The position numbers and the translations under genes are program-made. Below are positions 15,858 through 61,413 of a DNA stretch of 64,000 nucleotides, one piece after another; within the stretch, counting starts at the first letter, position 1, and every line of letters starts with the position of its first letter. Under the pieces are notes generated by a model. The model was not told the origin of the DNA and made no database searches. It was given only the letters and a program-made list of their open reading frames with translations. Origin of the DNA: Betaproteobacteria bacterium (GTDB taxonomy: Bacteria > Pseudomonadota > Gammaproteobacteria > Burkholderiales > Usitatibacteraceae); NCBI GenBank assembly GCA_040006575.1, contig JBDTWS010000002.1, forward strand, positions 1,380 through 65,379. Reading direction: 5' to 3'.

Positions 15858-15931
15858 TCCTACAGGTGTTGGTAACAGTACGAAAATGCAGAAAGTAATA
15901 CTAAAGTAGCAATAAAAAGACACCGAGCAAA

Positions 15932-15962
15932 TTGATTGAAAAACGGTGTTGGCTGGTATAAA
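15932..15962 (+). promoter_or_regulatory. candidate sigma70 promoter for the 547-aa secreted protein gene
   Basis: TTGATT (15932-15937) and an extended -10 TGgTATAAA (15954-15962). The 19-nt spacing is non-ideal. The region is an AT-rich intergenic stretch. Visual match only. Confidence 0.25.
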
Positions 15963-16022
15963 CTTGATTTGTTGTAGCTTCTAAAGTGATCACTTTATTC
16001 TCTAAAAGGAGTAACCTAAAAA

Positions 16023-17666: not shown

Positions 17667-17694
17667 TCGATTCAAATTGCCACACGCAACAAAC

Positions 17695-17723
17695 AAAAAG
17701 GGGTGCAGTTGCACCCCTTTTTG
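17695..17723 (+). terminator. rho-independent terminator
   Basis: aaaaaGGGGTGCAgtTGCACCCCtttttg: GC-rich 8-bp stem followed by a T-tract, 30 nt after the stop codon. Confidence 0.8.
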
Positions 17724-17864
17724 TCGTTTGAAGATGCAATCTGTATGCAAGAGTTTACATTCTTGGGTGGCCTCGCCTGCTAGCATCGGTTGCACTAATA
17801 AGAAAAAATATCTTCACTCTGCCGGGACCATTACGTGATTTATGTTGGACTTAAGAGGAACAAA

Positions 17865-19526: not shown

Positions 19527-19549
19527 TACTGCCGTAAGTTTTACAAACT

Positions 19550-19582
19550 CGCAGGCGGAATTTATTTCCGCCTGCGTTTTTT
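19550..19582 (+). terminator. rho-independent terminator
   Basis: CGCAGGCGGAAtttatTTCCGCCTGCGtttttt: 11-bp stem followed by a T6 tract. It ends 14 nt before the PPIase start codon. Confidence 0.75.
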
Positions 19583-19595
19583 CATAAAGACGTCC

Positions 19596-20537
19596 ATGAA
19601 ACTCGCAAAAAAAATTCTGTTCCTCGCATTTACCACATTGCTGCCAATTGCCGCATATTCACAGACCCCCCTTCCCAGGGACAAGGTGCTCGCATCAAAC
19701 CCGCGCGCCACAGTGACATACGCTGATTTTGAAGCGGAGATGGCTCGCATTCCGCAAAGGGATCAATACGAATTCATGATGGACAAGGATCGCATCGCGA
19801 CCCTGGTCGACAATATTCTGATCAACAAGACACTGGCAATTGAGGCTCGCGAAAACAAGCTCGAAAACAATGTGCAGGCCCAGGCTGAAATTAGCAATCA
19901 CACTGACAAGGTGCTGGCTAAATATCGCGGCCTGCAAATCCAGAACTCCGCTCCAAAGATCGATTACCTGCCACGCGCCCGCGAAATATATCTCGCTAAC
20001 CCGGAGCGATTCACGTCTGCGCCGCTATATGACGTTTGGCATGTCCTGGTCAATTTCACCGGACGGACCAAGGAGCAGGCAAAAGTTCGGGCTGATGAAC
20101 TGCGCGCCAGACTCGTCGCTGGAGAGTCTCCCGAAAAAATAGCAGCCGAGAACTCGGACGATGGCTTCGCAAAAACCGACAAGGGCAATCTCGGACCTTC
20201 CGACCTGAAGACCTATGACGTGAGATTTGCCGCGGCCGTCCGTAAGCTGAAACCAGGTGAGTTTTCCCCGGTTTTTGAATCGGAGTTTGGGTTTCATGTC
20301 GCCAAGCTCCGCGCTTACAAAGCAGCGGTAAAGCTCCCGTTTGAAACGGTAAAAGCAGCGCTTATTAATGAGGCAGAGGACCAGTATCTCAACTCCGTTT
20401 GGGAAGCGCACCTGCGAAAGATCCGGAACGATCCCAAGCTTTTTGTAGACGTCGAAGCGCTTGAACAGTTGCGCCCGAAGGTCGCGCCCGTACCATCCGC
20501 CCTGCCGTTGCCCGGCGCGTCGCCAAAATCGAAGTGA
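19596..20537 (+). CDS. periplasmic parvulin-type peptidyl-prolyl cis-trans isomerase (SurA/PpiD/EpsD-like)
   Basis: Signal peptide MKLAKKILFLAFTTLLPIAAYS. PpiC/rotamase domain (VWHVLVNF...GNLGPSDL...FESEFGFHVAKL). Confidence 0.85.
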   Translation: MKLAKKILFLAFTTLLPIAAYSQTPLPRDKVLASNPRATVTYADFEAEMARIPQRDQYEFMMDKDRIATLVDNILINKTLAIEARENKLENNVQAQAEISNHTDKVLAKYRGLQIQNSAPKIDYLPRAREIYLANPERFTSAPLYDVWHVLVNFTGRTKEQAKVRADELRARLVAGESPEKIAAENSDDGFAKTDKGNLGPSDLKTYDVRFAAAVRKLKPGEFSPVFESEFGFHVAKLRAYKAAVKLPFETVKAALINEAEDQYLNSVWEAHLRKIRNDPKLFVDVEALEQLRPKVAPVPSALPLPGASPKSK

Positions 20538-38727: not shown

Positions 38728-39552
38728 ATGTCCACACCCTCCTATTCGATTACCTTCGCCTGCTACAACGCGGTCAAATACACACGTATGTGCGTCGACA
38801 GCATGCTGAAACATGGCACGCGGCTGGATCGGCTTATCGTCGTGGACAACGGCTCCAGCGACGACACGCGCGCCTACCTGCAATCGCTGCCGGTAGGCGA
38901 GCGTATTTTCAACAAGCAGAACCTGGGCTGCGGCGTGGCATGGAACCAGGGTGTGCTGGCGCAGCAGGCCGAGTGGTCGATCATCATGAACAACGACGTG
39001 CTGGTCTCGCCAGGGTGGGTCGAATCGCTGATCGAGACGGCGCAGCGCAAACAGCTAAAAATCATTTCGCCGTCGTTGATCGAAGGCCCGCTCGACTACG
39101 ATTTCGAGGAATTCGCGCCGCGTGCCGCCGCCACCATGCACGATGTACTGCGCATCGGCAATCCGCATGCGGTCTGCCTCGCGGTTCACGAATCGGTATG
39201 GGCCGAGATCGGCTACTTCCAGCCCACGCCGAAGCTGTGGGGTTTTGAAGACACGATGTTTTTTCACGCCGCGAAAAAAGCCGGCATCCCCATGGCGCTC
39301 ACCGGCGCCAGCTGGCTGCATCATTTCGGTTCCATCACGCAATCGGAAATGAAACGCGAGCGCGGGCTGACCGAAAAACAGGCGCTGGGCGATCGCTACA
39401 ATTATCGCCAGTTGCACCAGGGTTGGCTTGAACGAAAATTGCAGAAGCGCCAGAAAGTGGCCAACCTCAAGGCGTGGCGCAACAGCGAACTGGACAAGTA
39501 CGGCATGACACTGCATGGCATCCGAGAGAACGGGCAATTCAAATGGTTGTGA
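38728..39552 (+). CDS. glycosyltransferase family 2
   Basis: SITFACYN, VVDNGSSDDT, NLGCGVAWNQG, NNDV and FEDTMFF motifs. Confidence 0.85.
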   Translation: MSTPSYSITFACYNAVKYTRMCVDSMLKHGTRLDRLIVVDNGSSDDTRAYLQSLPVGERIFNKQNLGCGVAWNQGVLAQQAEWSIIMNNDVLVSPGWVESLIETAQRKQLKIISPSLIEGPLDYDFEEFAPRAAATMHDVLRIGNPHAVCLAVHESVWAEIGYFQPTPKLWGFEDTMFFHAAKKAGIPMALTGASWLHHFGSITQSEMKRERGLTEKQALGDRYNYRQLHQGWLERKLQKRQKVANLKAWRNSELDKYGMTLHGIRENGQFKWL

Positions 39553-39667
39553 ACTGTTCCCAGCTGCCATCAACTTCCTGATCCCGCATCCAGCCGCAAA
39601 TTGCTACAGTCGCCGTTCCGCTTTCCCGTTATTCTCTCGCAGGCTCAATTTCCCCCCGGAGTTTTCC

Positions 39668-42600
39668 ATGAAATATCACGCCGCCTTGATGGGCGCTTTG
39701 TTGGGCGCAGCAATGATGGGTCACGCACAAACCGCGGGCACGCCGGTGCAACCCGGTTATTTCCGACAGCCCGCCATCAACGCGAACAACATCGTATTTG
39801 TTGCCGAGGGCGACCTGTGGCGCACGGGTGTCAGCGGTGGAACTGCCCAGCGGCTGACGAGCAACTTCGCCGCCGAATCCAATCCGGCGATTTCTCCCGA
39901 TGGAACGCAGCTCGCCTTCACCGGCCGCTATGAAGGACCGGCCGAGGTGTATGTCATGCCACTGTCCGGAGGCACGCCAAAGCGGCTTACGTTCGACGGT
40001 GATACCGCCCTCGTACAAGGGTGGACACAGGACGGCCGCGTGCTCTACAACTCGCCGCGCCAATCGGGCAAGCCTGACCTGCGCCTGTACACCATTCATC
40101 CCGCGACACGCGAGGTCAAACCGGTGCCGCTCAGCGAAGCCGCGGAGGGCTGTTACACCGGCACGTCGCTGTACTTCACGCGGCGGGGCGCGATCTCCGA
40201 CAACGTCAAGGGATACAAAGGCGGCCTCGCGCAGAGCATCTGGAAATTCGATGAGGGCAGGGAAGCAGTGCCGTTGACGAAGTCGCACGGCGGCACCAGC
40301 CGGCAGCCGATGTGCGCGGCGGGAAGGATTTATTTCCTCAGCGATCGCGACGGCACGATGAATATCTGGTCGTTGAATAATGCGGGCGCGGACCTGCAGC
40401 AACACACCGCACACCGCGATTTCGACATTCGCGGCGCATCCATTTCCCCCGATGGAAAGATTGCGTATCAGCGTGGCGCGGATTTGTATTTGTTCGATAC
40501 CACCGCCACCGCTGACAAACGCGACGCTTTGATCACCATTAACCTGCAATCGGATTTCGAACAACTGCGCACGCGCTGGGTGAAAACGCCGTGGGACTTT
40601 GTCACGGCCGTCGAAGTCTCGCCCAACGGCGACCGCGTGGTGCTCACCGCGCGCGGACAGGCATTCGTGGCGCCGGTCGGCGTGGGACGCCGCGTTGAAG
40701 CGACGCGCGTTTCAGATGTGCGCATTCGCAGCGCCGCGTTTTCGGCGGACGGCAAATCCATTCTCGCGTTTGGTGACCGTAGCGGTGAGATGGAGTTGTG
40801 GCGCTATCCCGCCAACGGTGTCGGTGAAGGAAAACAGCTGACCAAAAACGCGACGGTTTTGCGCCAGCGCTTCTGGCCCTCGCCTGATGGAAAGTGGATC
40901 GCGCATGTGGACAAGGACCGTCGCCTGTATCTGCTCAATCCTGCCAATGGCGAGGAGCGTGAAATCGACCGCGCCGCGTTCGGCCTGCATGATGACGTTC
41001 AGTGGTCTTCGGACAGCCGTTGGATCGTGCTGGAAAAAGGCACGCGCAGTGGCTTCCAGAGCCTTACGTTGATGGATGTCGCGGGGCGTAACAAGACGGC
41101 GCTCACCAGTGAGCGCTATCACGCACACGATGCGGCCTTCAGCCCCGACGGAAAATGGCTCTATTTCATGAGCGACCGGCATTTGCAAAGCGTGGTCGGC
41201 AGCCCGTGGGGGCCGCGTAATCCGGAACCGTTCTTTGACCGGCAGACAAAGATCTATGCGCTGGCGCTGGACACCGCTGCGCGCTGGCCGTTCCTGCCGA
41301 AGGATGAATTGCAACGGGCCGACCCGGAGAAGAAACCGGATACCGTGAAGACGATTGAAGTCGAAAAGAAAACGGTCCCCGAGAAAAAACCGGCAACCGA
41401 CAAAAAGCCTGAGCAGGCACAGCCACCAAAGCCAGCGGAGCCGGGTGAACCGGTTCACCCGAAAGGCGACAGCGTGACGGAAGCTACCGCCGACGTAAAG
41501 TCCGATTCAAAACCCGGCAGCGGATCGCCGGGTGCGGCGCCCGCTTCGGCCACCGCCGTCAATATCCGGCTTGAGGGACTCACCACGCGTCTCTACGAAG
41601 TACCCGTCCCGCCCGGCAATTACAACCAGCTCACCACGGACGGCAAACGCCTGTATTTCCTCGTGGCCGATTCAACTTCGGATCAAAAGAAATCGCTGCG
41701 CTCGGTAGCCATCGAGGCGCCGAATCCTGCGCCGCCGGCAATTGACTTGTTTTTCGACGATGTGCGTTCCTACCAGCTGAGCCAGGATCGCAAGAAGATC
41801 CTGATCCGCAGGGCCAATGACCTGTGGGTATTCGACGCCGGCAAATCTCCGCCGCCGCCAGCCGACCAGGGCAAATTCGCGGTGAACCTGCGCGACTGGA
41901 CTTTTCCGGTGGATCCCCGCGAGGAATGGAAACAGATGTTCGTCGATGCATGGCGCATGCATCGCGATTATTTCTACGACAAGAACATGCAGGGCGCGGA
42001 CTGGAAAAAAGTGCGCAGCCATTACGAGCCGCTGGTGGCGCGTGTGACCGAGCGCTCCGAGCTGAATGATGTGTTAGGTCAGATGACTGCCGAGGCCGCT
42101 GCGCTGCACAGCCAGGTGGGTGCGTCCGACGTGCGCAAAGGCGCGGACGCCATCGATGTGGCCGGACTGGCGGCTGATATGGTGATGACCGACACCGGGT
42201 TCCGCGTGACGCGTCTCTACCAGGGCGATCCGGAATTGCTCGACGAGCGCGGTCCGCTGGCAAAGAGCGAAGTTGCCATCGTTCCCGGCGAGACCATCAC
42301 TGCGGTGAACGGCGTGCCGGCAAAATCGGCGCGCGCCATCGGCGAGCTGTTGCGCAACCAGGTGGGCAAACAGGTTTTGCTGGCGGTGACGTCGGCGAAC
42401 GGCCGTAGCCGTGACGTGATCGTCACGCCGGTCACCACCCGCCGCGACCGCGAGCTGCGCTACCTGGCATGGGAGCGCGACCGGCAGGCCATGGTCGACA
42501 AGGGGGGCAACAATCGCATCGGCTATGTGCATCTGCAGGCGATGGGCGCCACCGACATCGCGCGCTGGGCGCGTGAGTTTTACCCGGTGATCCAGCGCGA

Positions 42601-43129
42601 CGGCCTCATCATCGACCTGCGAAACAATCGCGGCGGCAACATCGATTCCTGGATCATCGAAAAACTCCAGCGCCGCACATGGCAGTTCTGGCAATCGCGC
42701 GATACGGATGAGCCGTTCACCAACCAGCAGGCGGTGTTCCGCGGCCACACGGTGGCGCTGATCGATGCCAACACGTATTCCGATGGCGAGACCATGGCGC
42801 AGGGGCTGCGGAGGCTGGGTATCGCACCACTGATCGGCATGACCACGGCCGGGGCGGGGATCTGGCTTTCCGACCAGAACACGTTGCGCGATAACGGGAT
42901 CGCGCGCGTCGCGGAATTCGGCTCGTTTGTCGATGACGGGAAAGAGCGCGCGTGGATCACGGAAGGTATCGGCGTGGCGCCGGATATGGAAGTCGACAAT
43001 CTCCCGCACGCGACTTTCAACGGCGGCGACGCGCAGCTGGAGGCGGCGATTCGCTATCTGTCGGAAAAGATCGCGAAAGAGCCGGTGAGAGCGCCGGTGG
43101 TGCCGGCGTTTCCGGTGAGAAAGAAGTAA
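39668..43129 (+). CDS. tricorn-protease-like periplasmic S41 peptidase (beta-propellers + PDZ + S41)
   Basis: ATG at 39668 gives the signal peptide MKYHAALMGALLGAAMMGHAQT. Repeated PD40/TolB-like segments (SPDG..., FSPDGKW). C-terminal IIDLRNNRGGNID and IDANTYSDGE form the S41 core. Confidence 0.85.
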   Translation: MKYHAALMGALLGAAMMGHAQTAGTPVQPGYFRQPAINANNIVFVAEGDLWRTGVSGGTAQRLTSNFAAESNPAISPDGTQLAFTGRYEGPAEVYVMPLSGGTPKRLTFDGDTALVQGWTQDGRVLYNSPRQSGKPDLRLYTIHPATREVKPVPLSEAAEGCYTGTSLYFTRRGAISDNVKGYKGGLAQSIWKFDEGREAVPLTKSHGGTSRQPMCAAGRIYFLSDRDGTMNIWSLNNAGADLQQHTAHRDFDIRGASISPDGKIAYQRGADLYLFDTTATADKRDALITINLQSDFEQLRTRWVKTPWDFVTAVEVSPNGDRVVLTARGQAFVAPVGVGRRVEATRVSDVRIRSAAFSADGKSILAFGDRSGEMELWRYPANGVGEGKQLTKNATVLRQRFWPSPDGKWIAHVDKDRRLYLLNPANGEEREIDRAAFGLHDDVQWSSDSRWIVLEKGTRSGFQSLTLMDVAGRNKTALTSERYHAHDAAFSPDGKWLYFMSDRHLQSVVGSPWGPRNPEPFFDRQTKIYALALDTAARWPFLPKDELQRADPEKKPDTVKTIEVEKKTVPEKKPATDKKPEQAQPPKPAEPGEPVHPKGDSVTEATADVKSDSKPGSGSPGAAPASATAVNIRLEGLTTRLYEVPVPPGNYNQLTTDGKRLYFLVADSTSDQKKSLRSVAIEAPNPAPPAIDLFFDDVRSYQLSQDRKKILIRRANDLWVFDAGKSPPPPADQGKFAVNLRDWTFPVDPREEWKQMFVDAWRMHRDYFYDKNMQGADWKKVRSHYEPLVARVTERSELNDVLGQMTAEAAALHSQVGASDVRKGADAIDVAGLAADMVMTDTGFRVTRLYQGDPELLDERGPLAKSEVAIVPGETITAVNGVPAKSARAIGELLRNQVGKQVLLAVTSANGRSRDVIVTPVTTRRDRELRYLAWERDRQAMVDKGGNNRIGYVHLQAMGATDIARWAREFYPVIQRDGLIIDLRNNRGGNIDSWIIEKLQRRTWQFWQSRDTDEPFTNQQAVFRGHTVALIDANTYSDGETMAQGLRRLGIAPLIGMTTAGAGIWLSDQNTLRDNGIARVAEFGSFVDDGKERAWITEGIGVAPDMEVDNLPHATFNGGDAQLEAAIRYLSEKIAKEPVRAPVVPAFPVRKK

Positions 43130-51227: not shown

Positions 51228-54227
51228 TTGGAGTTGCGTTTGGAGCCGAAAAGAAATGAGGCCTGCCCTTGTGGCAGCGGAAAGCGGTACAAGCATTGTT
51301 GTGGACTTGAAGCGTCCACTGCATCTGTGCTTGTGCAAAATCCCGCGCCGGCCGCCGCGCCGCATAGCGCCCCGGCTGGCGATGCACCGACGGCCGTCGA
51401 AAAAGACCAGGCTATTGCCCTGTTCAACGCCGGGCGCCATGCAGAATTGGAGAGCCGGGCGCGCGCCCTGGTCGAGCGATACCCGGTGTCCGGCTGGGCC
51501 TGGAAAGTGCTGGGGATTTCGCTTCAGCTGCAGGGCAAGGATACGTTGGCCGCGTTGCAGAAAACCGTCGAATTCCTGCCGGACGATGCCGGCGCGCATG
51601 CCATGTTGGGAGCTACCCTTGTCGACCGGGGTCAATTCGAGAGTGCTGCGACAAGCTGCCGCCGCGCGCTGACGCTTGATCCGGATTACGCAGAGGCACA
51701 CGGTAACCTGGGCGTTGCGTTGCACGGCATGGGGCAATTCGAAAAGGCCGTGGCAAGCTGTCGTCGCGCACTGGCGATCGATCCCGATTTTGTCCAGGCA
51801 CATGGCGCGATGGGGGCGTCCCTCCAATCCCTGGGGCGGTTCGAAGACGCAGTCGCCAGCTATCGCCGGGCGGTGGAGCTGAACGCGGATTTCGCCCCCA
51901 CGCATTGCAACCTGGGTGCGGGCCTTATCGACTTGAAGCAGTTCGAAGAGGCGGCGGCGAGTTGCCGTCGGGCACTGGCAATTGATCCGGCGTATATCGA
52001 AGCGCACTGTAACCTCGGCATCGCGTTGCAAGGACTGGGGCAATTTGATGCCGCTGTGGAAAGCTGTCGCCGGGCGCTGGCCATCAATCCCGATTATGCC
52101 GAGGCGCACAACAGCCTGGCCACTGCCCTGCAAGCACTCGGCCATCTCGATGAAGCGCTGGTGAGCTATCAGCGGGCGTTGGTCCTCAGGCCCCAGTACG
52201 CTGAGGCGCATAACAACATGGGCAACGTGTTGCGAGATCTCCGGCAAATGACTGAAGCGGTAACGAGCTATCGGCACGCGCTGGCAATCAATCCTCATTT
52301 TGCCGAGGCGCACAATAATCTCGGTGTTGCCCTCCAAGTCCTCGAGCAACTCGATGAGTCGGCGGCCTGCTTCAGGCGGGCCCTGGCCATTAAACCCCGT
52401 TACGCCGAGGCGTACAGCAACCTCGGCAGTACGCTGCAAGACCTCGGGCTATTGGATGAGGCCGTGGCATGTTGCCGCCAGGCGCTTGCGATCAATCCTG
52501 GGCTCGCCGGCGCGCACAATAACCTGGGCAATGCGCTGAGGGACCAGCGGCAATTTGACGCCGCGATCGAAAGCTATCGCAAGGCATTGGCCATTAATCC
52601 GGATTTTGCCGAGGCGCATTACAACCTGGGCATTGCGCTGCGAGACTGCGAGCAATTTGATGACGCGGTGGCAAGCCTTCGCCGGGCCCTTGAGATCAAT
52701 CCCGATTTCGGGGAAGCGCACAGCAGCCTGGGATCGATATACGGAAGCATGGGCAAGATGAGTGAGGCCCGTGCCAGTTATGCAAAAGCACAGGCATTGG
52801 GCTTTGAAAGCGCCTGGGTACTGGATGCGCTGATGTTGCCCCCCATCATGGGCACAAAGGCGGAAATGCTGGAAAGCCGTGCGGCATTTGAACGCAATCT
52901 GGAACAGCTGATGAGGAAGGCTGTGCCCCAGCGCAACCCGTTTCGGAACGTAGCGCTTACCAACTTTTACCTGGCCTACCATGCCTTGAATGACCGGGAT
53001 CTGCAAATCGAGGTAGCGAAATACTATGAGCAGGCATGCCCGTCGTTGCTATATACCGCACCCCACTGTCTTCGGCCGAAGGTCCGTGCCGGGCAAAAGA
53101 TCCGTGTCGGCTTCTTTTCCAAATATTTGTATGAACATTCCGTTTCGCTTTGCTATAGCGAAATTGTCGAGTCACTTTCGTCGAACGATCAATTTGACGT
53201 GACGTTGATTTCCGATCGTCCTGCCGATGAAAAAACCTATTCGAAATTCGCCGGCAGGCGCGTGCAGGTGCCGCACAATATTGATCGCGCCAGGGAGCTG
53301 ATTGCCGCGCAGGAGCTGGACATCCTCGTATACCTTGATATCGGCATGGAACCCCTGAGTTATTTCCTGGCGTTCGCGAGATTGGCGCGCGTGCAGTGCG
53401 TTCTCAGTGGCCATCCGGTGACGACGGGCATCACCAACGTGGACTACTTCCTGTCGAATGACCCGATGGAACCGCCCGGCGCGGAGGCCCATTACAGCGA
53501 GAAATTGGGCAAGTTGCCGAAGCCGCTGTTTTATCTTGCGCGACCGGCCATACCTGCCAGGCTCAAGACGCGGACAGAACTCGGATTGCCTGAGGGACAG
53601 CACCTTTATATGTGCCCGATGCGGCTGCAGAAAATGCATCCGGATTTCGATGAGGCGATCACACGGATTTTGCAGATCGATGACACGGGCGTCGTCGTGT
53701 TGTTTGAAGACGTTGAACTGAAATTTGGCAAGAAGCTGCTTCTCCAGCGCTTTGAAAAGACCGTACCCGCAGATGTTCGCGAGCGCGTCGTATTCCTGCC
53801 ATGGTTAAAAAACCAAACCGATTTCATGAGCGCCATTGCGGCAGCCGACGTCATCCTGGATCCCTTCCACTTCGGTATCGGCTCAACGGCGATGACCACC
53901 ATCGCAATAGGTACGCCCATGGTGACGAAGGCCGGAGAATTCATGCGCGGGCGGGTGGGCATGTGGCTGTGCGAATTGATGGAGCTGCCTGAATGCATTA
54001 CCCACGATACCGAGGCCTACGCACAAAAGGCCGTGCAGCTTGCCGGCAATCCGGCGCTGCGGGAAAGCGTCGTCGCGAAGATGCGCAAGAACAGTCATCG
54101 CTTGTATGAAAACCTTCAACCTGTCGATGATTTTGCGAACTTCCTGCGTTCGGTGGCAGGGGAATCGACTAATCAGGCAGCGCATCACGTTACGCCACAT
54201 TCATCTTTGAGTCGCGCGCAGCATTGA
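51228..54227 (+). CDS. SEC-C zinc motif + ~14 TPR + GT41 (OGT/SPINDLY-like) glycosyltransferase
   Basis: N-terminal ACPCGSGKRYKHCCG (SecA C-terminal type SEC-C motif, nt 51261-51305). A TPR array. The C-terminal domain is paralogous to the GT41 domain of ORF 26715 (RVQCVLSGHPVTTGITNVDYFLSNDPMEPPGAEAHYSEKL). TTG start, exact codon uncertain. Confidence 0.8.
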   Translation: MELRLEPKRNEACPCGSGKRYKHCCGLEASTASVLVQNPAPAAAPHSAPAGDAPTAVEKDQAIALFNAGRHAELESRARALVERYPVSGWAWKVLGISLQLQGKDTLAALQKTVEFLPDDAGAHAMLGATLVDRGQFESAATSCRRALTLDPDYAEAHGNLGVALHGMGQFEKAVASCRRALAIDPDFVQAHGAMGASLQSLGRFEDAVASYRRAVELNADFAPTHCNLGAGLIDLKQFEEAAASCRRALAIDPAYIEAHCNLGIALQGLGQFDAAVESCRRALAINPDYAEAHNSLATALQALGHLDEALVSYQRALVLRPQYAEAHNNMGNVLRDLRQMTEAVTSYRHALAINPHFAEAHNNLGVALQVLEQLDESAACFRRALAIKPRYAEAYSNLGSTLQDLGLLDEAVACCRQALAINPGLAGAHNNLGNALRDQRQFDAAIESYRKALAINPDFAEAHYNLGIALRDCEQFDDAVASLRRALEINPDFGEAHSSLGSIYGSMGKMSEARASYAKAQALGFESAWVLDALMLPPIMGTKAEMLESRAAFERNLEQLMRKAVPQRNPFRNVALTNFYLAYHALNDRDLQIEVAKYYEQACPSLLYTAPHCLRPKVRAGQKIRVGFFSKYLYEHSVSLCYSEIVESLSSNDQFDVTLISDRPADEKTYSKFAGRRVQVPHNIDRARELIAAQELDILVYLDIGMEPLSYFLAFARLARVQCVLSGHPVTTGITNVDYFLSNDPMEPPGAEAHYSEKLGKLPKPLFYLARPAIPARLKTRTELGLPEGQHLYMCPMRLQKMHPDFDEAITRILQIDDTGVVVLFEDVELKFGKKLLLQRFEKTVPADVRERVVFLPWLKNQTDFMSAIAAADVILDPFHFGIGSTAMTTIAIGTPMVTKAGEFMRGRVGMWLCELMELPECITHDTEAYAQKAVQLAGNPALRESVVAKMRKNSHRLYENLQPVDDFANFLRSVAGESTNQAAHHVTPHSSLSRAQH
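51594..52817 (+). repeat. 12 uninterrupted tandem 34-aa (102-bp) TPR units
   Basis: Units begin AH(x)NLG and end ...CRRALAI(D/N)P(D)(F/Y)AE. The periodicity is visible at DNA level (recurrent gcgctggc.atc.atcc.ga.t). Two looser TPRs lie upstream, from about 51408. Confidence 0.85.
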
Positions 54228-54306
54228 TCCACTAATTGGAGTGAACGCCGTTTGAAGAACCGTGCCCGCAGGAAAACAGAAAACAGACAGGCCCACCAGC
54301 AAAGCC

Positions 54307-55428
54307 ATGACCGCACCCCGCGATAAGCCACCTATCTATGTGACACAGCCGCAACTTCCCCCGCTGGAAGAATTTGTCCCCTATCTGGCGAAAATCTGGG
54401 ACAGCAAGATCCTGACCAACTGCGGTCCGTTTCATGAGCAGCTGGAGACGGCGTTGTGCGAATACCTGGGGGTCAAGCAGATCTCCCTGTTTACCAATGG
54501 CACGATTGCGCTGGTCACTGCACTGCAAGCCTTGCGGATCACCGGCGAAGTCATTACTACGCCGTATTCGTTTGTAGCGACGGCGCATTCGCTGCTGTGG
54601 AATGGCATCAAGCCGGTGTTTGTGGACATTGATCCCATCACACTTAATCTCGATCCGGACAAGATCGAGGCCGCCATTACACCGCAAACCACCGCCATCA
54701 TGCCGGTGCATTGCTATGGGAAACCCTGCGATACGTCACGTATTCAAGCCATTGCCGACAAGCACGGGCTAAAAGTGATTTACGATGCGGCGCATGCTTT
54801 TGGCGTTAAGGACTCTGGTGGAAGTGTGCTCAATGACGGCGACCTTTCCGTGCTGAGTTTTCACGCGACCAAGCCGTTCAACACGTTTGAGGGCGGAGCC
54901 ATCGTATCCCCGGATGCTGAAACCAAACAGCATATCGACCACCTGAAAAACTTCGGATTCGTCGATGAAGTGACGGTCGTGGACCCCGGTATCAATGGCA
55001 AGATGAGTGAGATCAATGCCGCGTTCGGTCTGTTGCAATTGAAGGGTATCGATGCCGCCCTTGAAGCGCGCAAAGTCATTGACGCGCGTTATCGGCAACA
55101 CTTTGTCGCGGCAAAGGGCATTCAATGCCTCGCCGAGCCCGCAGGTATCCAGGCCAACTACGCTTACTTTCCGATCCTGGTGCAGCCGGCCCATCCGCTC
55201 AGCCGCGATGGCTTGTATGAAAAATTGCGCGCCCACGGAATTTATTCGCGGCGTTATTTCTATCCCTTGATCAGCGATTTTCCGATGTATAGCGCGATGC
55301 CGTCGGCAGCACATGCCAACTTGCCCGTGGCAAGGAAGGTGGCGAGTGAGGTGATTTGCCTGCCGATATATCCGGCGCTGTCGATTGAACAGGTCGACTT
55401 CATTGCCGAACTCATCGTTTCGCCATGA
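54307..55428 (+). CDS. DegT/DnrJ/EryC1/StrS-family NDP-sugar aminotransferase
   Basis: PLP-dependent fold. LSFHATKPF contains the Schiff-base Lys. DAAHAFG. WecE/FdtB-like overall. The ATG at 54307 is preferred over the ORF-track start at 54262. Confidence 0.88.
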   Translation: MTAPRDKPPIYVTQPQLPPLEEFVPYLAKIWDSKILTNCGPFHEQLETALCEYLGVKQISLFTNGTIALVTALQALRITGEVITTPYSFVATAHSLLWNGIKPVFVDIDPITLNLDPDKIEAAITPQTTAIMPVHCYGKPCDTSRIQAIADKHGLKVIYDAAHAFGVKDSGGSVLNDGDLSVLSFHATKPFNTFEGGAIVSPDAETKQHIDHLKNFGFVDEVTVVDPGINGKMSEINAAFGLLQLKGIDAALEARKVIDARYRQHFVAAKGIQCLAEPAGIQANYAYFPILVQPAHPLSRDGLYEKLRAHGIYSRRYFYPLISDFPMYSAMPSAAHANLPVARKVASEVICLPIYPALSIEQVDFIAELIVSP

Positions 55429-56186
55429 AACGTGTTGCCATCATGCAGCCGTATTTCTTCCCGTATATCGGCTATTTCCAGCTGATCGCCGCAGTGGATC
55501 TGTTCATCGTGTACGACAATATCAAGTACACCAAGAAGGGCTGGATTAATCGCAACCGCATGCTGCAGGGCGGCAGGGATGTGATGTTCTCGCTGCCGCT
55601 GAAAAGCGATTCGGACTCCCTGGATGTAGGCGAACGGGAGCTGGCGAAGGATTTCAAACGTGACAAATTGTTGAACCAGATTACCGAGGCGTACCGGCAC
55701 GCACCCTATTTTTCCGAAACGTTTTTCCTGGTTGAGGAAATCGTTAAGCATGACGACGCGAACCTTTTTGGGTATTTGCATCATTCCATTGCCAGGACCT
55801 GTGAACACCTGGGAGTCTTGACGGAGATAAAAATTTCTTCCGGTATCGCCATCGACCATGCGCTGAAGAACCAGGAAAAGGTGCTCGCCCTGTGCGCGGC
55901 TGTCGGCGCGACTGACTATGTCAATGCTATCGGTGGCATGGAACTCTATGCGGATGACGCCTTCCAGAAAAGGGGAATCGAGTTGAAATTCCTGCGTTCG
56001 CACCCGTTCGAGTATGTGCAGCTCGGCGACACGTTTGTTCCGTGGTTGTCTATCATCGACGTGATGATGTTCAACCCGGTTGAGGCCATCAAAACTTACC
56101 TCGGCTCGGGTTACGAATTGATTGCGGGCGGACAGATGCCCGCTAAGATGCCGGATTCACAATTGATGTCGGGTTTGCACCTGTAA
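55425..56186 (+). CDS. WbqC-family protein
   Basis: MKRVAIMQPYFFPYIGYFQLIAAVDLFIVYDNIKYTKKGWINRN is the characteristic WbqC-like N-terminus. ATGA overlap with the aminotransferase gene. Confidence 0.75.
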   Translation: MKRVAIMQPYFFPYIGYFQLIAAVDLFIVYDNIKYTKKGWINRNRMLQGGRDVMFSLPLKSDSDSLDVGERELAKDFKRDKLLNQITEAYRHAPYFSETFFLVEEIVKHDDANLFGYLHHSIARTCEHLGVLTEIKISSGIAIDHALKNQEKVLALCAAVGATDYVNAIGGMELYADDAFQKRGIELKFLRSHPFEYVQLGDTFVPWLSIIDVMMFNPVEAIKTYLGSGYELIAGGQMPAKMPDSQLMSGLHL

Positions 56187-56927
56187 ATGATTTTTCAGGA
56201 GAACGCTGTGGGCAATAAGGAAATTGAACACCTGGAATCAATTAGTGCCTTTTATGAAAAAGGCGACTACATGGATGAGCTGATGATTGATCGGGAAATC
56301 GACATAATCAAGCGATATGCAACCGCCGGCAAAAGCGCGCTGGAAGTGGGGTGTGGCAGCGGTTCCTCCACCGAAAAGCTGTGCGGGCTGTTCGAAGATA
56401 TTGAGGTCATCGAGCCGTCAAGGAAGAACATTGCCTTGCTGAAGGGGAGAGTGCCGGGCGTCGTTTGCCATGAGGCGCTGCTGGAGGATTTTTCGCCTTC
56501 CCGGAAATTCGACTTCATTTTTTTCCTGAACGTCATTGAGCACGTGGAGGATCCGGTTGCATCCCTCAAGATCCTCGCCGGCCTGGTCAAGCACGAGGGG
56601 CTGATCTTTATTTCGGGTCCAAATTGCATGTCCCTGAATCGACGTGCTGGGTACAAGATGGGTCTGTTGGAAGACTACGAAAAAATGGCGCCAAAGGACA
56701 TTGAGGTCGGCCATCGCCGGCTTTATACGGTGGCGATGTTGCAGGATCATTGCGATCAGGCGGGATTGAGGGTGCTCGACATGAAGGGGATGTACCTGAA
56801 ACCGCTTTCGGAAAAGCAGATGATTGCCCTGGGTGATGAAGCCGTGCGAGCCTTTTATGCGATCGGGGAGGACATCCCGGAATATTGCGCAAGCCTCCTC
56901 GCGGTAGCGACCCGTAAATACTATTGA
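56187..56927 (+). CDS. class I SAM-dependent methyltransferase
   Basis: SAM motif I ALEVGCGSGSST. FFLNVIEHVEDP. Paralogous to ORF 59521..60273. Confidence 0.8.
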   Translation: MIFQENAVGNKEIEHLESISAFYEKGDYMDELMIDREIDIIKRYATAGKSALEVGCGSGSSTEKLCGLFEDIEVIEPSRKNIALLKGRVPGVVCHEALLEDFSPSRKFDFIFFLNVIEHVEDPVASLKILAGLVKHEGLIFISGPNCMSLNRRAGYKMGLLEDYEKMAPKDIEVGHRRLYTVAMLQDHCDQAGLRVLDMKGMYLKPLSEKQMIALGDEAVRAFYAIGEDIPEYCASLLAVATRKYY

Positions 56928-56990
56928 TTGCCCGGAGGGTTTCCAGAGCCAAGTATTGGCGGGCGGCAATTTCAAGAATGGTGGGTAAAC

Positions 56991-57953
56991 GTGTTTCGAT
57001 GGAAAAAACAGGGGCTGGTCTTCAAGCCCCAGGCAATTGAAGGCAGGCCTTGGCTAAGGGAGTTTGCGCAAGCGCCTTCGGTATTGATCTTCGATGATTT
57101 TGTGCGGGTCTATTTTTCCTGCAGGCCGGCGCCGGATGCGCGCGGGCAATATACAAGTTATTCCGCCTACGTCGATTTGAACCGGCGCAATCTGTTTGAG
57201 ATCGTAAATATTGCCAAAGCGCCCATCCTGGAATTGGGCGAACTGGGAACGTTCGACGAGTTTGGAACCTACCCGGTATCGGTGATCAGGAATGGCGTCG
57301 ATGTACTCGCCTACTATGGCGGCTGGACAAGGTGCGAATCGATTCCCTTTACCGTATCCATCGGCGCTGCGGTCAGTCGCGACAATGGTGAGAGCTTCAC
57401 GAAGCTCGGGCGCGGGCCGCTTTTGACGTGCAACATCGATGATCCGTTTGTACTCAGCGGACCCAAAATCAGGCGATTCAATGATCAGTGGTGCCTGTGG
57501 TATGTCGCCGGGACGGCGTGGCTGGAAAATGACGGCAAGCCGGAAGCGGTCTACAAGATTCGCATGGCAACTTCAGACGACGGCCTTAACTGGGCAAGAA
57601 GCGGCAAAAATCTGGTTGAGAACAAATTGGAGGAAAACGAATGCCAGGCGAGTCCGGACGTCTTCTTCCACAACAATAAATACCACATGTTTTTTTGCTA
57701 CAAGTACTGCCTCGATTTCAGGAATAACGACCGGGGCTATCGTATTGGCTATGCCGTTTCCGACGACATGGTGAACTGGATTCGGGACGACACAAAAGCG
57801 GGTATCGATATCTCGCCGGAGGGATGGGATGATCAATCCATCTCCTATCCACATGTGTTTGCGCTGGATGGTGACATTTACATGTTCTATTTAGGAAATG
57901 CGGTTGGCCGATATGGATTTGGGCTCGCGCAACTGGAAGGTCATCTTTCATGA
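56991..57953 (+). CDS. uncharacterised protein, predicted beta-propeller glycosidase/phosphorylase-like fold (paralog 1)
   Basis: The GTG at 56991 aligns its N-terminus (FRWKKQGLVF) with the paralog's MKWKKLGKIF. There are repeated W/D/G-rich blade-like segments (WCLWYVAG, YHMFFCY, IYMFYLGN). The fold call rests on pattern only. Confidence 0.5.
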   Translation: MFRWKKQGLVFKPQAIEGRPWLREFAQAPSVLIFDDFVRVYFSCRPAPDARGQYTSYSAYVDLNRRNLFEIVNIAKAPILELGELGTFDEFGTYPVSVIRNGVDVLAYYGGWTRCESIPFTVSIGAAVSRDNGESFTKLGRGPLLTCNIDDPFVLSGPKIRRFNDQWCLWYVAGTAWLENDGKPEAVYKIRMATSDDGLNWARSGKNLVENKLEENECQASPDVFFHNNKYHMFFCYKYCLDFRNNDRGYRIGYAVSDDMVNWIRDDTKAGIDISPEGWDDQSISYPHVFALDGDIYMFYLGNAVGRYGFGLAQLEGHLS

Positions 57954-57972
57954 TCCTGGTCCCGACACCGCT

Positions 57973-58926
57973 ATGAAATGGAAGAAACTGGGAAAGATAT
58001 TCGACCCGACGGAACATCGCCTGTCGAACAACTGCAAGGAATTCGCCCAATCACCCCAGGCATTGGTATTTGACGACTTCGTCCGTATCTATTTCTCAAC
58101 GCGGGAAAGGGATGCGATGGGGAAATACCTGAGTCATATTTCATTTGTCGATATGGACAAAGACTTCAGGACAGTGATCAGGGTATCGACGGAGACGGTC
58201 ATCAGCCTGGGTGCGTTGGGCAGCTTTGACGAACACGGCATATTTCCGATGAACGTCTGCAAGGTCAATGACAAGGTACTTGCCTACACCACGGGCTGGA
58301 ATAGAAGGGCATCGGTGTCCACCGATGCCGCAATCGGCTTGGCCATCAGCGATGACGACGGCGTGACGTTTCGCAAGGTCGGCAAAGGGCCGGTATTGAC
58401 GCCTTCACTGAATGAACCTTTCCTGGTCGGCGACGCGTTCGTTGCCGTATACGGCGGCACGTATCACATGTGGTATGTCTTCGGCACGAAGTGGGCGCGC
58501 CAGTCACCGGAGGGCGTACCCGAGAGAGTCTATAAAATTGCCCACGCCACTTCCGGCGATGGCATCTCCTGGATCAAGGAGGGCCGGCTGTTGATCACCG
58601 ATAAACTGGATGCCGACGAGTGCCAGGCGCTTCCCACGGTGACGTTTGTAGATGGCCGTTATCACATGTTTTTTTGTTATCGGCATGCGACAGACTTCAG
58701 AAAAAACCGGGACAGGGGGTATCGAATCGGCTACGCCGTTTCCGAAGACCTGGTGAGCTGGACTCGGGACGATGACAACGTCGGGATCGATGTGACGGAC
58801 GGCAGTTGGGATTCGGACATGTTGTGCTACCCGCATGTTTTTCAAATGGATGGCGGCGTGTATTTGCTGTACAACGGAAACGAGTTTGGCCGCCATGGTT
58901 TCGGCCTGGCGAAGCTGGAAAATTAG
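57973..58926 (+). CDS. uncharacterised protein, predicted beta-propeller glycosidase/phosphorylase-like fold (paralog 2)
   Basis: ATG at 57973. Collinear with the preceding gene over its whole length, for example EFAQSPQALVFDDFVRIYFS versus EFAQAPSVLIFDDFVRVYFS, and RGYRIGYAVSEDLVSWTRDD versus RGYRIGYAVSDDMVNWIRDD. Confidence 0.5.
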   Translation: MKWKKLGKIFDPTEHRLSNNCKEFAQSPQALVFDDFVRIYFSTRERDAMGKYLSHISFVDMDKDFRTVIRVSTETVISLGALGSFDEHGIFPMNVCKVNDKVLAYTTGWNRRASVSTDAAIGLAISDDDGVTFRKVGKGPVLTPSLNEPFLVGDAFVAVYGGTYHMWYVFGTKWARQSPEGVPERVYKIAHATSGDGISWIKEGRLLITDKLDADECQALPTVTFVDGRYHMFFCYRHATDFRKNRDRGYRIGYAVSEDLVSWTRDDDNVGIDVTDGSWDSDMLCYPHVFQMDGGVYLLYNGNEFGRHGFGLAKLEN

Positions 58927-58954
58927 CCGCGCGCATATATCGGGAGACAGCCAA

Positions 58955-59515
58955 ATGAATATCAGGGGAAAAGTGCTGACGTTAAGGGCCATTGAGGAAC
59001 GTGACCTTGCGTTGTTGCACAAATGGGCAAACGATCCCGTGACCCAGGACGGAATTGGTGAATTGCACTTTCCGAGCTCCATGGATTTCCATAGTGCGTG
59101 GTTCCAGAATTTGAAACAGGACCGGCTGAACCAGCGGTTTGTGGTCGACGTGCCGGAGGTGGGGATCATCGGCATTTCCAGTATCGTCAATATTGATTGG
59201 CGCAATAGCCATGCCTGGCATGGCTTGGTGCTGGGTGAGGCCCAGCATCGAGGCAAAGGCTATGGCGTAGACGCGATCATGGCGACGATGCGATACGCCT
59301 TTGAAGAAATGAATCTTGAGCGGCTTGACGGGTCGATGATCGAATATAACGAACAGTCGATCGCTACCTACTGCGGAAAAAAACTGGGTTGGAAAGAGGA
59401 GGGGCGAAAGAAGAATTACTTCTTCAGGAAGGGCCGGTACTGGGACCAGGTCATTGTGGGTATTACCAAACAGGATTACCTCAATTTGGTAAAAGAAACG
59501 AAGTACTGGGCATAG
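58955..59515 (+). CDS. GNAT-family N-acetyltransferase (RimJ/RimL/PseH-like)
   Basis: ATG at 58955. LRAIEERDLALLHKWANDP; HRGKGYGVDAIMATMRYAFEEMNLERL (acetyl-CoA motif A). Confidence 0.8.
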   Translation: MNIRGKVLTLRAIEERDLALLHKWANDPVTQDGIGELHFPSSMDFHSAWFQNLKQDRLNQRFVVDVPEVGIIGISSIVNIDWRNSHAWHGLVLGEAQHRGKGYGVDAIMATMRYAFEEMNLERLDGSMIEYNEQSIATYCGKKLGWKEEGRKKNYFFRKGRYWDQVIVGITKQDYLNLVKETKYWA

Positions 59516-59520
59516 CGACG

Positions 59521-60273
59521 ATGGAGACGATGAAATCACCACCCGACAATCATCAGGAGTCGTCGGCCGCCGCCCAACCAAGGTATGCATACGCCTTTGA
59601 TATCGACGTGATGCACCCTTTCATGCTGCGATCGTTCGAGCCGTTCTTTAACAAGGGCAGCCTGCTTGAACTTGGCAGTCACAAGGGCGATTTCACCCGG
59701 CGATTTCTGTCCCGTTTCGATGATGTGACCTGCGTCGAAGCGTCGGAACCCGCACTGGCAGAGGCGAAGCAGGCGCTGGGAAACAAAGTGACGTTGATCC
59801 ATTCGACGTTTGAGACGGTCACGCTTCCCCGACGCTACGACAACATTATCCTGACCCACGTATTGGAACACCTGGACGACCCGGTGCTGGTGCTGAAGCG
59901 CATAAACGATGAGTGGCTGACGGACAACGGCAGGCTCTTCCTGGTTTGTCCGAATGCAAACGCGCCATCGCGGCAGATCGCCGTGAAAATGGGACTGATA
60001 TCCCACAATGAAGCGGTCACGCCGGCGGAGGCCGAACATGGTCACCACGTCACCTACACATCGCACACGCTTGAACGCGACGCCGTTGCCGCAGGATTGC
60101 GTGTAGTCCATCGATCAGGAGTCTTTTTCAAGGCATTGGCAAATTTCCAATGGGATCGCCTGCTCGCCACGGATATTATTTCAAAAGAGTATCTGGACGG
60201 TTGCTACCAACTTGGGCTGGCGTATCCCGACTTGTGCGCCAGCATTTTCCTGGTATGCGAGAAGGGCGAATGA
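59521..60273 (+). CDS. class I SAM-dependent methyltransferase
   Basis: ATG at 59521. LLELGSHKGDFT (degenerate motif I). ILTHVLEHLDDP. Paralog of 56187..56927. Confidence 0.8.
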   Translation: METMKSPPDNHQESSAAAQPRYAYAFDIDVMHPFMLRSFEPFFNKGSLLELGSHKGDFTRRFLSRFDDVTCVEASEPALAEAKQALGNKVTLIHSTFETVTLPRRYDNIILTHVLEHLDDPVLVLKRINDEWLTDNGRLFLVCPNANAPSRQIAVKMGLISHNEAVTPAEAEHGHHVTYTSHTLERDAVAAGLRVVHRSGVFFKALANFQWDRLLATDIISKEYLDGCYQLGLAYPDLCASIFLVCEKGE

Positions 60274-61413
60274 GTGGCGACTGACACTGGCAACATGAGT
60301 CATCGCGAACAGCTGGGTAGTGCCGAACGGCCCATCCTGATTTTCCCCGGTGGCATGCCGCGTTCGCTTGAATACTTGCAAAAGTGCCTGCGTGACGAGC
60401 AGGCTGTCATTGGCGCATCGTCGCTCGACTACGATGTATCGCGGGAGCAATACCCCCAATGGCTCTATCTCCCGTATATCACCCAGCACGACTTCAATGA
60501 CGCGTTAAAGCAACGCATCCAGGAGTTCAACATCGGCGGCATTTTTTCACCCAATCCGGTGGTCTGGAACTACCTGAGCCAGATACTGAATGAGCTGGCC
60601 CCCGGGGTTGTACTGGTCAACGACTCCCCGGTGAATACCGAGCTGGCCGGATATCGCACGGCGCGCGAACGCGCGCGCGTGTTGCTTGAAAATCCCATTC
60701 CATTGGCGTCTGCAGTCGAGTGCAAGGCGTCCGTATCCGCCATCGAACTTGCTGCCTTGTTCCGGCACACGGCAACGATACCGGGCATGTGCGACGACGA
60801 AAAACTCAACGCCTTGTGCGAAATCGCCCGCTTTTGCCCGCCCGGTGACATAGTGGAAATCGGCAGCTGGTGGGGGAAATCAGCGTTCGTGTTTTCACGA
60901 TTGGCACATTGCTACGACATCGGAAAGTTGTTGTGCGTTGATCCGTGGTCAAACGAGCATTTGGTCCAGCATGACGACAAGGGTCTCGTCGATGGCGGAT
61001 CCGCGCAGGTAGATGCAAGCGAAGCGCTGCTTGTTTTTGAAATGAACCTGCTTCCCTATAATTTGAATCATGTGAATTACTTGCGCATGCCGTCGACAGA
61101 GGGGGCGAATTACTATCGTGAGAACCAGGTTGTCACCACACCATCATTTGGGACGACGAATTATCGCGGCCAGGTCGCGATACTGCACGTCGACGGCAAT
61201 CACAGCTACGCCGCCGCGAAAGGCGACGTTAGCGCGTGGAGCGCCTTTGTTATCGATGGCGGCTGGATAATTGTTGACGACTATCTTTGGCCGTATGGCG
61301 ATGGTCCGCAACGGACTGGCGATGAATTCATCGCTGACAATTTCGAGAGAATTGATGTTGCGTTTGTGATGGGTGGCGCGCTGTTCATTCAGCTGTCATC
61401 TCGCCTCGTCTAG
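60274..61413 (+). CDS. fusion protein: N-terminal domain of unknown function + Methyltransf_24-like class I methyltransferase
   Basis: The C-terminal half contains DIVEIGSWWGKSAFV ... LHVDGNHSYAAAKGDVSAWSAFVIDGGWIIVDDY, typical of the O-methyltransferase/CmcI-like family. GTG at 60274 directly follows the previous stop; an alternative ATG lies at 60295. Confidence 0.65.
   Translation: MATDTGNMSHREQLGSAERPILIFPGGMPRSLEYLQKCLRDEQAVIGASSLDYDVSREQYPQWLYLPYITQHDFNDALKQRIQEFNIGGIFSPNPVVWNYLSQILNELAPGVVLVNDSPVNTELAGYRTARERARVLLENPIPLASAVECKASVSAIELAALFRHTATIPGMCDDEKLNALCEIARFCPPGDIVEIGSWWGKSAFVFSRLAHCYDIGKLLCVDPWSNEHLVQHDDKGLVDGGSAQVDASEALLVFEMNLLPYNLNHVNYLRMPSTEGANYYRENQVVTTPSFGTTNYRGQVAILHVDGNHSYAAAKGDVSAWSAFVIDGGWIIVDDYLWPYGDGPQRTGDEFIADNFERIDVAFVMGGALFIQLSSRLV

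Follow-up and report, generated by a model that had tools for sequence, protein, structure and literature searches.

Which sugar is made by a compact set of tailoring genes, and to what is it attached, when the gene directly ahead of the set encodes a soluble glycosyltransferase? The question is raised by a 64,000-nt stretch of contig JBDTWS010000002.1 (assembly GCA_040006575.1, positions 1,380-65,379), referred to here as the window, in which all coordinates below are counted. Eight open reading frames on its + strand (54307-61413) follow, 79 nt downstream and on the same strand, a gene for a protein with a SEC-C motif, tetratricopeptide repeats (TPRs) and a GT41-type catalytic domain. We call the latter gene GT41a and the eight genes the cassette; their products are, in order, a DegT-type aminotransferase, a WbqC-family protein, a methyltransferase (MT1), two paralogous propeller proteins (BP1 and BP2), a GNAT N-acetyltransferase, a second methyltransferase (MT2) and a protein ending in a Methyltransf_24 domain (MT24). 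In the reading that we favor, with a probability of about one half, the cassette is the long form of a mobile module that prepares a donor sugar, and GT41a transfers the product to protein. We infer each chemical step and the acceptor from the gene content, conservation, linkage and folds documented below, where labels such as G000 and G009 denote genomes, and labels such as L003 and L014 denote loci, of the comparison sets.

Distribution and linkage of the cassette

The cassette genes are separated by gaps of -4, 0, 63, 19, 28, 5 and 21 nt, with start codons chosen by upstream context and comparison with homologues; these re-derived starts bear out the tight packing (-4 to +63 nt) of eight genes described in a first-pass annotation of this DNA. 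Profile searches against Pfam agreed with the families proposed there for all eight frames. Together with a check for transmembrane segments they also upheld the claim that the operon holds no dehydratase, flippase, polymerase or conventional membrane glycosyltransferase: no dehydratase, flippase, polymerase or membrane protein was found among the eight cassette genes, and none of the nine proteins, GT41a included, has a transmembrane segment. All nine reading frames are intact, and a scan for promoters and terminators picked up no signal within the block that exceeded chance.

Homologues of BP1 number over 7000, with 70-88% identity in the top 120. In a cross-phylum survey of 80 BP1-bearing loci, with one genome per species, BP1 was encountered at 63-86% identity in more than ten phyla, including members of the Proteobacteria, Bacteroidota, Clostridia, Chloroflexota, Nitrospirota, Verrucomicrobiota and Patescibacteria. 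An almost invariant core of DegT-WbqC-BP1-BP2-GNAT-MT2 runs through the 80 loci, MT2 following GNAT in nearly all of them, and the cassette ranks among the most widespread uncharacterised sugar-tailoring modules. The window carries its long form, which adds MT1, MT24 and a GNAT of the Acetyltransf_3 type. MT1 accompanies a GNAT of this type in 17 of 18 loci and is confined to the long form; short-form cassettes have an Acetyltransf_1-type GNAT of about 152 aa in the same slot.

A GT2 glycosyltransferase gene follows MT2 in 32 of the 80 loci, and a GT41 or HMW1C catalytic domain flanks the cassette in 12, all of them in Beta- or Gammaproteobacteria; GT41 and GT2 never share a locus. MT24 is likewise present in 12 loci, eight with GT41 and none with GT2. 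The transporter genes wzm/wzt were seen in 11 of the 80 and Wzx-type flippases in seven, and cassette loci of polysaccharide type include those of Mariprofundus and Polynucleobacter. All 12 GT41-type loci are free of wzm/wzt and wzx to a distance of 10 kb, and the combination expected of a polysaccharide cluster (a flippase and polymerase, or wzm/wzt, with membrane-associated transferases) was not found within 51228-61413. When 400 genomes were sampled evenly across the order, 28 proved to carry GT41a-type genes and 39 propeller genes; 14 had both, where chance would give 2.7, and in 11 of these 14 the two kinds of gene lie within 13 kb of each other. Six genomes of the window's genus were checked for both: G000, G009 and G005 have the two, and G014, G019 and G023 have neither. 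Because GT41 and GT2 exclude each other over the 80 loci, and because of the co-localisation in 11 of 14 genomes, GT41a is the likely transferase for the cassette sugar, and we propose that GT2 and TPR-GT41 enzymes are interchangeable delivery modules of the cassette. Between G000 and G009, the ratio of nonsynonymous to synonymous substitution rates (dN/dS) is 0.06-0.16 for GT41a (0.16) and seven cassette genes at a dS of about 1, which indicates that these genes are in use.

The first-pass annotation had put the GC content of the operon at about 52%, against low to mid 60s elsewhere, and had taken this as a sign of horizontal acquisition. The measured values are 53.6% for the cassette and 59.2% for the 4.0-Mb genome (standard deviation 1.6% over 7.1-kb windows), which places the cassette in the lowest 0.8%. 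At third codon positions (GC3), the eight genes have values of 0.62-0.70, within the genome distribution of 0.68 +/- 0.075, so that the deviation is located in codon positions 1 and 2. The dip thus stems from the amino acids of which these very conserved proteins are made and not from foreign codon usage, and we rejected GC by itself as a ground for inferring recent horizontal transfer. Mobility of the cassette has support of another kind. It is patchy within the genus (present in three of 24 genomes in one draw); a phoU-rpiA-ilvA neighbourhood is kept in three relatives, the genes after ilvA being different; and in G126, of the same genus, the full eight genes lie between the rpsP-rimM-trmD-rplS operon and ffh. 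From this patchy presence and these different insertion sites it follows that the block moves: the cassette is mobile, and its codon usage here is ameliorated.

Proposed assembly of the donor sugar

The first cassette gene (54307-55428) encodes a pyridoxal-phosphate-dependent aminotransferase (DegT_DnrJ_EryC1, 335 bits) resembling VioA and DesI. Its best match in the PDB is DesI (2po3, 1e-66), 69 bits ahead of the next and far ahead of perosamine synthases and 3-aminotransferases, and the gene is 66% identical in nucleotide sequence to an annotated E. coli vioA over 674 nt, features expected of a VioA-type 4-aminotransferase; the score against the NCBIfam DesI equivalog is 290, under the cut-off of 650. 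Moreover, rfbB and/or rfbA adjoin the cassette in about 20 other loci. The likeness to DesI and vioA and these neighbours together point to deoxythymidine diphosphate (dTDP)-4-keto-6-deoxyglucose as the substrate and dTDP-viosamine as the first product. The enzyme would accordingly aminate C4, converting dTDP-4-keto-6-deoxy-D-glucose to dTDP-4-amino-4,6-dideoxy-D-glucose. Its substrate would be supplied by RfbA and RfbB, encoded outside the cassette, and the rfbB and rfbA genes at 162-2131 on the + strand (GDP_Man_Dehyd/Epimerase and NTP_transferase matches) are the likely source in the window. The earlier suggestion that the keto-sugar precursor comes from elsewhere, with rfbA/rfbB as its origin, is in line with the kind of aminotransferase found and with the many cassettes flanked by these genes.

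The next protein (55425-56186) belongs to the WbqC family (PF08889, 222 bits against a curated cut-off of 21.3, over 217 of 218 model positions), which we take to be named from the E. coli O121/Shigella dysenteriae 7 cluster. A sequence search of the PDB gave no match, and a literature search on WbqC found no functional study. The predicted model (pLDDT 91) has BshC (4wbd) as its best fold match, with a Z score of 14.4 and a root-mean-square deviation of 3.3 A over 225 of 253 residues. Class I lysyl-tRNA synthetase (Z 12.2), glutamyl-tRNA synthetase (Z 8-9), MshC (Z 7.1) and arginyl- and cysteinyl-tRNA synthetase cores follow, 7-8 being the usual background, which the BshC match clearly exceeds. 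Foldseek likewise paired the model with BshC/MshC-type ligases (E 1.4e-3, probability 0.96), and the likeness covers the whole catalytic core, a Rossmann core of the class I aminoacyl-tRNA synthetase kind. WbqC is, however, half the size of BshC and only 11% identical to it in sequence, the likeness being known from the predicted fold. BshC and MshC are the cysteine:glucosamine-derivative ligases of bacillithiol and mycothiol synthesis; since both couple an amino acid to an amino sugar through the amine of the latter, we propose that WbqC is a putative ATP-dependent amino acid:amino-sugar ligase that would aminoacylate the C4 amine. In five long-form cassettes (L002:8339-9193, L015:8228-9082 and three others) a gene for a 3-hydroxyacyl-CoA dehydrogenase is inserted between WbqC and MT1, a hint that the decoration may also exist in a hydroxyacyl form.

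The GNAT protein (58955-59515; Acetyltransf_3, 57 bits) is of the RimJ/RimL/SpeG type; the NCBIfam models for PseH and SpeG match it below their cut-offs, and SpeG structures match at 7e-14. As an amine-acetylating enzyme of this kind it would cap a new alpha-amine, and its proposed role is to acetylate the amine left free on the newly attached aminoacyl residue. Two class I methyltransferases dependent on S-adenosylmethionine, the NodS/UbiG-like MT1 (56187-56927; Methyltransf_23/11 type, Methyltransf_23 60 bits, NodS 30 bits against a cut-off of 24) and MT2 (59521-60273; Methyltransf_23, 59 bits), would add methyl groups. GNAT and MT2 form a single fused protein in Sterolibacterium and in G057 (L117:11923-13134; L121:13751-14953), an arrangement that fits successive action of the two on one intermediate.

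BP1 (56991-57953) and BP2 (57973-58926), each of about 320 aa, are 46% identical to each other, nearly always adjacent, and share invariant motifs rich in Arg, His, Asp and Glu. Both are putative five-bladed propellers of GH130/GH32-like fold. Their matches to GH32N, GH43 and GH130-type families are weak: they score 15.5 bits against PF04041 (GH130; cut-off 26), 39-46 bits against the NCBIfam beta-1,2-mannobiose phosphorylase (cut-off 450), and match the PDB entry 7fip at 2e-5 over 90 residues only. Structure prediction gave a pseudo-symmetric BP1-BP2 heterodimer with an ipSAE of 0.92, against 0.00 for the best control; three runs agreed in at least 98% of contacts, with partner pLDDT values of at least 93. 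Of solved complexes 58 of 80, and of mismatched pairs two of 110, attain that ipSAE mark. BP1 and BP2 are therefore predicted to form a heterodimer, although the score may partly reflect solved GH130 oligomers, and the pair would carry out a further step on the sugar phosphate or nucleotide. The statement of the first-pass annotation that the GT41 protein is the only recognisable glycosyltransferase of the unit is not strictly right, as the weak GH130/GH32-type phosphorylase matches allow that the propellers could be glycosyl-transfer enzymes. In Polynucleobacter (L004:11065-12018) BP2 is split into frames of 167 and 143 aa, with BP1 intact.

The last cassette gene (60295-61413) encodes a 372-aa protein with a Rossmann-like N-terminal domain (residues ~14-130) and the C-terminal Methyltransf_24 domain (58 bits). 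The N-terminal part (about 140 aa) has no Pfam assignment, and a protein-atlas search gave no usable match to it. In the predicted model (pLDDT 90), the C-terminal domain is most similar to MeT1 (6g7d, Z 22.3), SpnH (Z 20.0) and CalS11, which we take to be O-methyltransferases working on sugars already attached to an acceptor. By its fold, the MT24 domain thus resembles metal-dependent sugar O-methyltransferases of this kind, and it would O-methylate the sugar after transfer.

The transferase, its acceptor and competing explanations

GT41a (51228-54227, a 999-codon frame) combines a SEC-C zinc-finger motif (34 bits in Pfam), about 11 TPRs matched by Pfam TPR families and a GT41-type GT-B domain. 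It belongs to CAZy family GT41, scoring 49 bits against Glyco_transf_41 (PF13844; cut-off 25) and aligning over its full length with XcOGT (3e-15). XcOGT and its other nearest solved structures, namely SPINDLY, human OGT and NGT/HMW1C, are all protein glycosyltransferases. The TPR array, the GT-B domain and the lack of transmembrane segments are those of a soluble transferase with protein-binding repeats, and GT41a would put the finished sugar, in the cytoplasm, onto Ser/Thr (or Asn) of a protein recognised by the TPRs. When GT41a is aligned with XcOGT, the K-x-x-P Lys and the first His have counterparts; the nucleotide-binding and catalytic roles of these residues, and of the His-Thr-Thr motif considered below, are those assigned in OGT structures.

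The SEC-C motif is included only when translation starts at a TTG codon (51228, 51234 or 51240); the public gene call, with a product of 874 aa, omits it. The orthologs of G009 and G172 conserve it, which speaks for the longer product, and translation probably begins at one of these TTG codons (51228-51240). The motif is absent from the flagellin-adjacent orthologs of G057, Sulfuritalea, Noviherbaspirillum and Janthinobacterium and present in one flagellin-linked locus, L093. The closest ortholog of GT41a, that of G009 (L014:693-3507), comes in two pieces, one of 184 aa with SEC-C and TPRs and one of 718 aa, through either a frameshift or an assembly error in this metagenome-assembled genome.

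Genes for flagellin, FliD or FlgL adjoin seven of the 12 GT41-type loci, as against one of the 68 other loci. The seven are found in Janthinobacterium (with three tandem copies), two Sulfuritalea, Noviherbaspirillum, a Nitrosomonadales genome and two Gammaproteobacteria, and one gammaproteobacterial GT41-type locus is situated inside a fliD-fliS-fleQ-fliF cluster. In G057, a member of another family, a GT41a ortholog (62% identity) stands back to back with the cassette beside fliD-fliC-fliC, and in G034 a GT41a ortholog lies 2 kb from a flagellin gene. Taken together with the protein-acting GT41 relatives and the precedent of FlmG, discussed in the next section, this linkage leads to the best reading of a GT41-type locus, that of a flagellin glycosylation island with direct transfer to protein, and flagellin is very probably the acceptor in related Beta- and Gammaproteobacteria. 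The suggestion of the first-pass annotation that the sugar goes straight to a protein is therefore plausible for GT41-type loci, but the cassette in itself has no specific tie to protein glycosylation.

In the window's own genome the acceptor must be sought elsewhere. Searches of this 96%-complete genome with PF00669 and PF01514, and with phmmer using flagellin, FliD and FlgL seeds, found no flagellin, FliF, FliD or FlgL, and there are no flagellar genes beside the cassette. None of these was found either in G009 or G172, the same-genus genomes with the closest GT41a orthologs, or in two further carriers, G371 and G217. As neither flagellin nor FliF was found and the genes are under purifying selection, we conclude that the acceptor here is probably a protein other than flagellin; a cassette version without detectable flagellar genes points to a further glycoprotein target. 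More speculatively, and with doubt on our part, SEC-C TPR-GT41 enzymes of bacteria without detected flagellar genes would act in the cytoplasm and glycosylate non-flagellar proteins with aminoacylated, methylated viosamine, and the SecA-type zinc finger may recruit the enzymes to ribosomes, SecB or the membrane, with secretory proteins modified ahead of their export. The Thr/Ser-rich secreted proteins of the window and its pilus/type II secretion-like system would then be candidate acceptors, and if this were true, a new general route of protein glycosylation with a WbqC ligase and a propeller heterodimer would be at hand. An S8 protease encoded downstream was considered as acceptor or partner and dropped, since its ortholog in G009 lies away from the cassette and G126, G005 and G407 have none. 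In Thalassomonas haliotis (L003:371-8383), the cassette follows a gene for an HMW1C-type N-glycosyltransferase and a chaperone-usher-like pilus operon (DUF4402, PapD_N and a large SdrD_B protein); the latter may represent a second kind of non-flagellar protein target.

Several observations weigh against transfer of the cassette sugar to protein by GT41a. No acceptor was found, the window's genome being without detected flagellin or FliF. The His-Thr-Thr phosphate motif of OGT reads Gly-Ser-Thr in GT41a, which is the most divergent of about ten GT41 proteins encoded in the genome, and to our knowledge no member of GT41 has been shown to use a dTDP-sugar. The roles given to WbqC and the propellers come from fold likeness and a single structure-prediction score. 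The cassette also sits elsewhere in polysaccharide loci of the wzx/GT2/GT4 and wzm/wzt types, and, ordinary wzx-type loci being among them, it is not the marker of protein glycosylation for which it had first been taken. The compared genomes are relatives, so that the co-occurrence counts overstate independence. A further adverse point, the tight wzm-wzt-GT41b-GT41c operon at 20.4-28.9 kb, whose Wzt has a weak Wzt_C cap-binding domain, is also the starting point of the main competing explanation, in which GT41a caps or branches an O-polysaccharide exported by this Wzm/Wzt pair, encoded 30 kb upstream, while other TPR-GT41 proteins build the chain. GT41b-type paralogs flank the cassette in other genomes, wzm/wzt stand directly upstream of it in about ten loci of other phyla, the window itself holds rfb genes, a GT9 gene and an O-antigen-ligase-like gene, and TPR-GT41 genes adjoin a type II secretion-like secretin gene in the window, in G172 and in L118. 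We nevertheless regard this explanation as unlikely: wzm/wzt are within 10 kb of none of the 12 GT41-type loci, seven of which have flagellar genes, the characterised GT41 relatives found all act on proteins, and in the window the wzm/wzt group and the cassette are 30 kb apart with housekeeping genes between them. A literature search on GT41 in O-antigen or ABC-transporter systems found nothing relevant.

The two parts of the block could, alternatively, be neighbours for historical reasons, as what is left of a former flagellin island in which the sugar is now used by other transferases, or GT41a uses another donor, with no coupling here. Two genomes that depart from the expected linkage fit such a history: G126, which also counts against the favored reading, keeps the full cassette with no glycosyltransferase nearby and has no GT41a-type gene, and G407 has GT41a-type genes and no propeller gene. 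The failure to find flagellar genes in the window's genome agrees with it as well. We consider it improbable all the same, as the order of GT41a and cassette is kept in G009 and both are under purifying selection, MT24, which travels with GT41, has been retained, and the intergenic gap is of just 79 nt. The missing flagellin, the usual acceptor, might even suggest that the whole block is a decaying, functionless remnant; nine intact frames, dN/dS values far below 1 at a dS of about 1 against G009, and GC3 adapted to the host genome make this highly improbable. We retain transfer of the cassette sugar to protein by GT41a as the reading that we favor. DNA of the locus is present in rhizosphere metagenome runs of one study, which may stem from the source sample; no RNA run containing it was listed among the public runs.

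Known systems and the wider window

The system of the window belongs with the viosamine-type islands known to glycosylate protein (flagellin), as a version whose basis is a widespread, uncharacterised cassette. One such island is that of Pseudomonas syringae pv. tabaci, with vioA, vioB, vioR, vioS, acp, vioM and vioT beside fgt1/fgt2 (PMC3927599, PMC4622738). The two share a VioA-type aminotransferase and a methyltransferase, and an N-acylated, methylated dTDP-viosamine is put on protein in the cytoplasm there and would be here. However, the acyl group there comes from fatty-acid-type VioR/VioS/ACP enzymes and VioB, in place of which WbqC, two propellers and a GNAT are found here; the transferase of the window is a TPR-GT41 protein, and flagellin was not found in its genome. 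Caulobacter FlmG, a flagellin O-glycosyltransferase with TPRs and a GT-B domain (PMC7591256), provides the precedent for GT41a. Compared by layout, both are modular soluble enzymes, with TPRs at the N terminus for binding the acceptor and a GT-B domain at the C terminus for sugar transfer, but FlmG uses CMP-pseudaminic acid as donor and is without a SEC-C motif. A betaproteobacterial counterpart is FlmQ (BCAL0111) of Burkholderia cenocepacia, a flagellin glycosylation gene (PMC4462625). As far as a comparison by description goes, it too is a case of a soluble transferase, encoded beside sugar genes, that puts a viosamine derivative on protein; the acyl chemistry differs, and so does the acceptor, the flagellin modified by FlmQ not being found in the window's genome. 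The FlmQ flagellin glycan is reportedly Qui4N(3-hydroxybutanoyl), a finding said to be that of Hanuszkiewicz and colleagues in 2014, as is the domain make-up of FlmQ.

XcOGT, human OGT, SPINDLY and HMW1C/NGT belong to the same Pfam family as GT41a and share with it the TPR-plus-catalytic-domain organization, with the OGT-type Lys and first His aligned. They are distant (E ~1e-15), GT41a adds an N-terminal SEC-C motif and does not keep the His-Thr-Thr motif, and their donors are UDP-GlcNAc, GDP-Fuc and UDP-Glc, whereas the likely donor of GT41a is a dTDP-sugar. Should GT41 enzymes indeed glycosylate proteins from a dTDP-amino sugar, the OGT family would have a wider range of donors than is known, and many betaproteobacterial 'O-GlcNAc transferase' annotations would be accounted for. 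The O-antigen of E. coli O121 has an N-acetylglycine substituent (PMC7685785). The O121 gene cluster, in common with that of Shigella dysenteriae 7, is taken to combine vioA-type chemistry with a WbqC gene, and N-acetylglycyl-Qui4N is the product expected of a ligase and a GNAT acting in turn, but it is a Wzx/Wzy O-antigen cluster. We know of no propeller pair or GT41 gene in it. Searching E. coli with the cassette recovered the vioA part only, in an O116-type cluster without a WbqC gene. To what is known of such systems our analysis adds four proposals: WbqC as an amino-acid ligase, the propeller heterodimer, an O-methyltransferase acting after transfer, and the interchangeability of GT2 and TPR-GT41.

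The wider window has wzm/wzt, two more TPR-GT41 genes, GT2, GT4 and GT9 genes and an O-antigen-ligase-like gene, such genes lying 15-30 kb upstream of the cassette. Between 3871 and 28916, on one strand, it carries a type II secretion/type IV pilus-like set (ATPase, platform protein, pseudopilins at 6.9-9.1 kb, PilM/N-like proteins, T2SSM_b and secretin), a peptidyl-prolyl isomerase and wzm-wzt. Two secreted proteins rich in Thr, Ser and Gly (547 and 563 aa; 16023-19526), one of them with He_PIG Ig domains, are encoded in the same region, as are two GT41 proteins: one of 1349 aa, in which the GT41 catalytic domain is present twice, and one of 733 aa with TPRs. The GC minima of the window fall here as well, one (47.4%, 15001-16000) just upstream of the two secreted-protein genes and the other (50.6%, 19001-20000) covering their end. 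The secretin genes adjoined by TPR-GT41 genes in G172 (L119) and in L118 are homologous to that of the window, and there may be a functional link between its secretion system and the GT41 enzymes. Further downstream, at 39515-43129, a 1204-aa tricorn-type protease (PD40 propellers, Tricorn C1 and PDZ domains, S41 peptidase) is encoded beside the O-antigen-ligase-like and GT2 genes.

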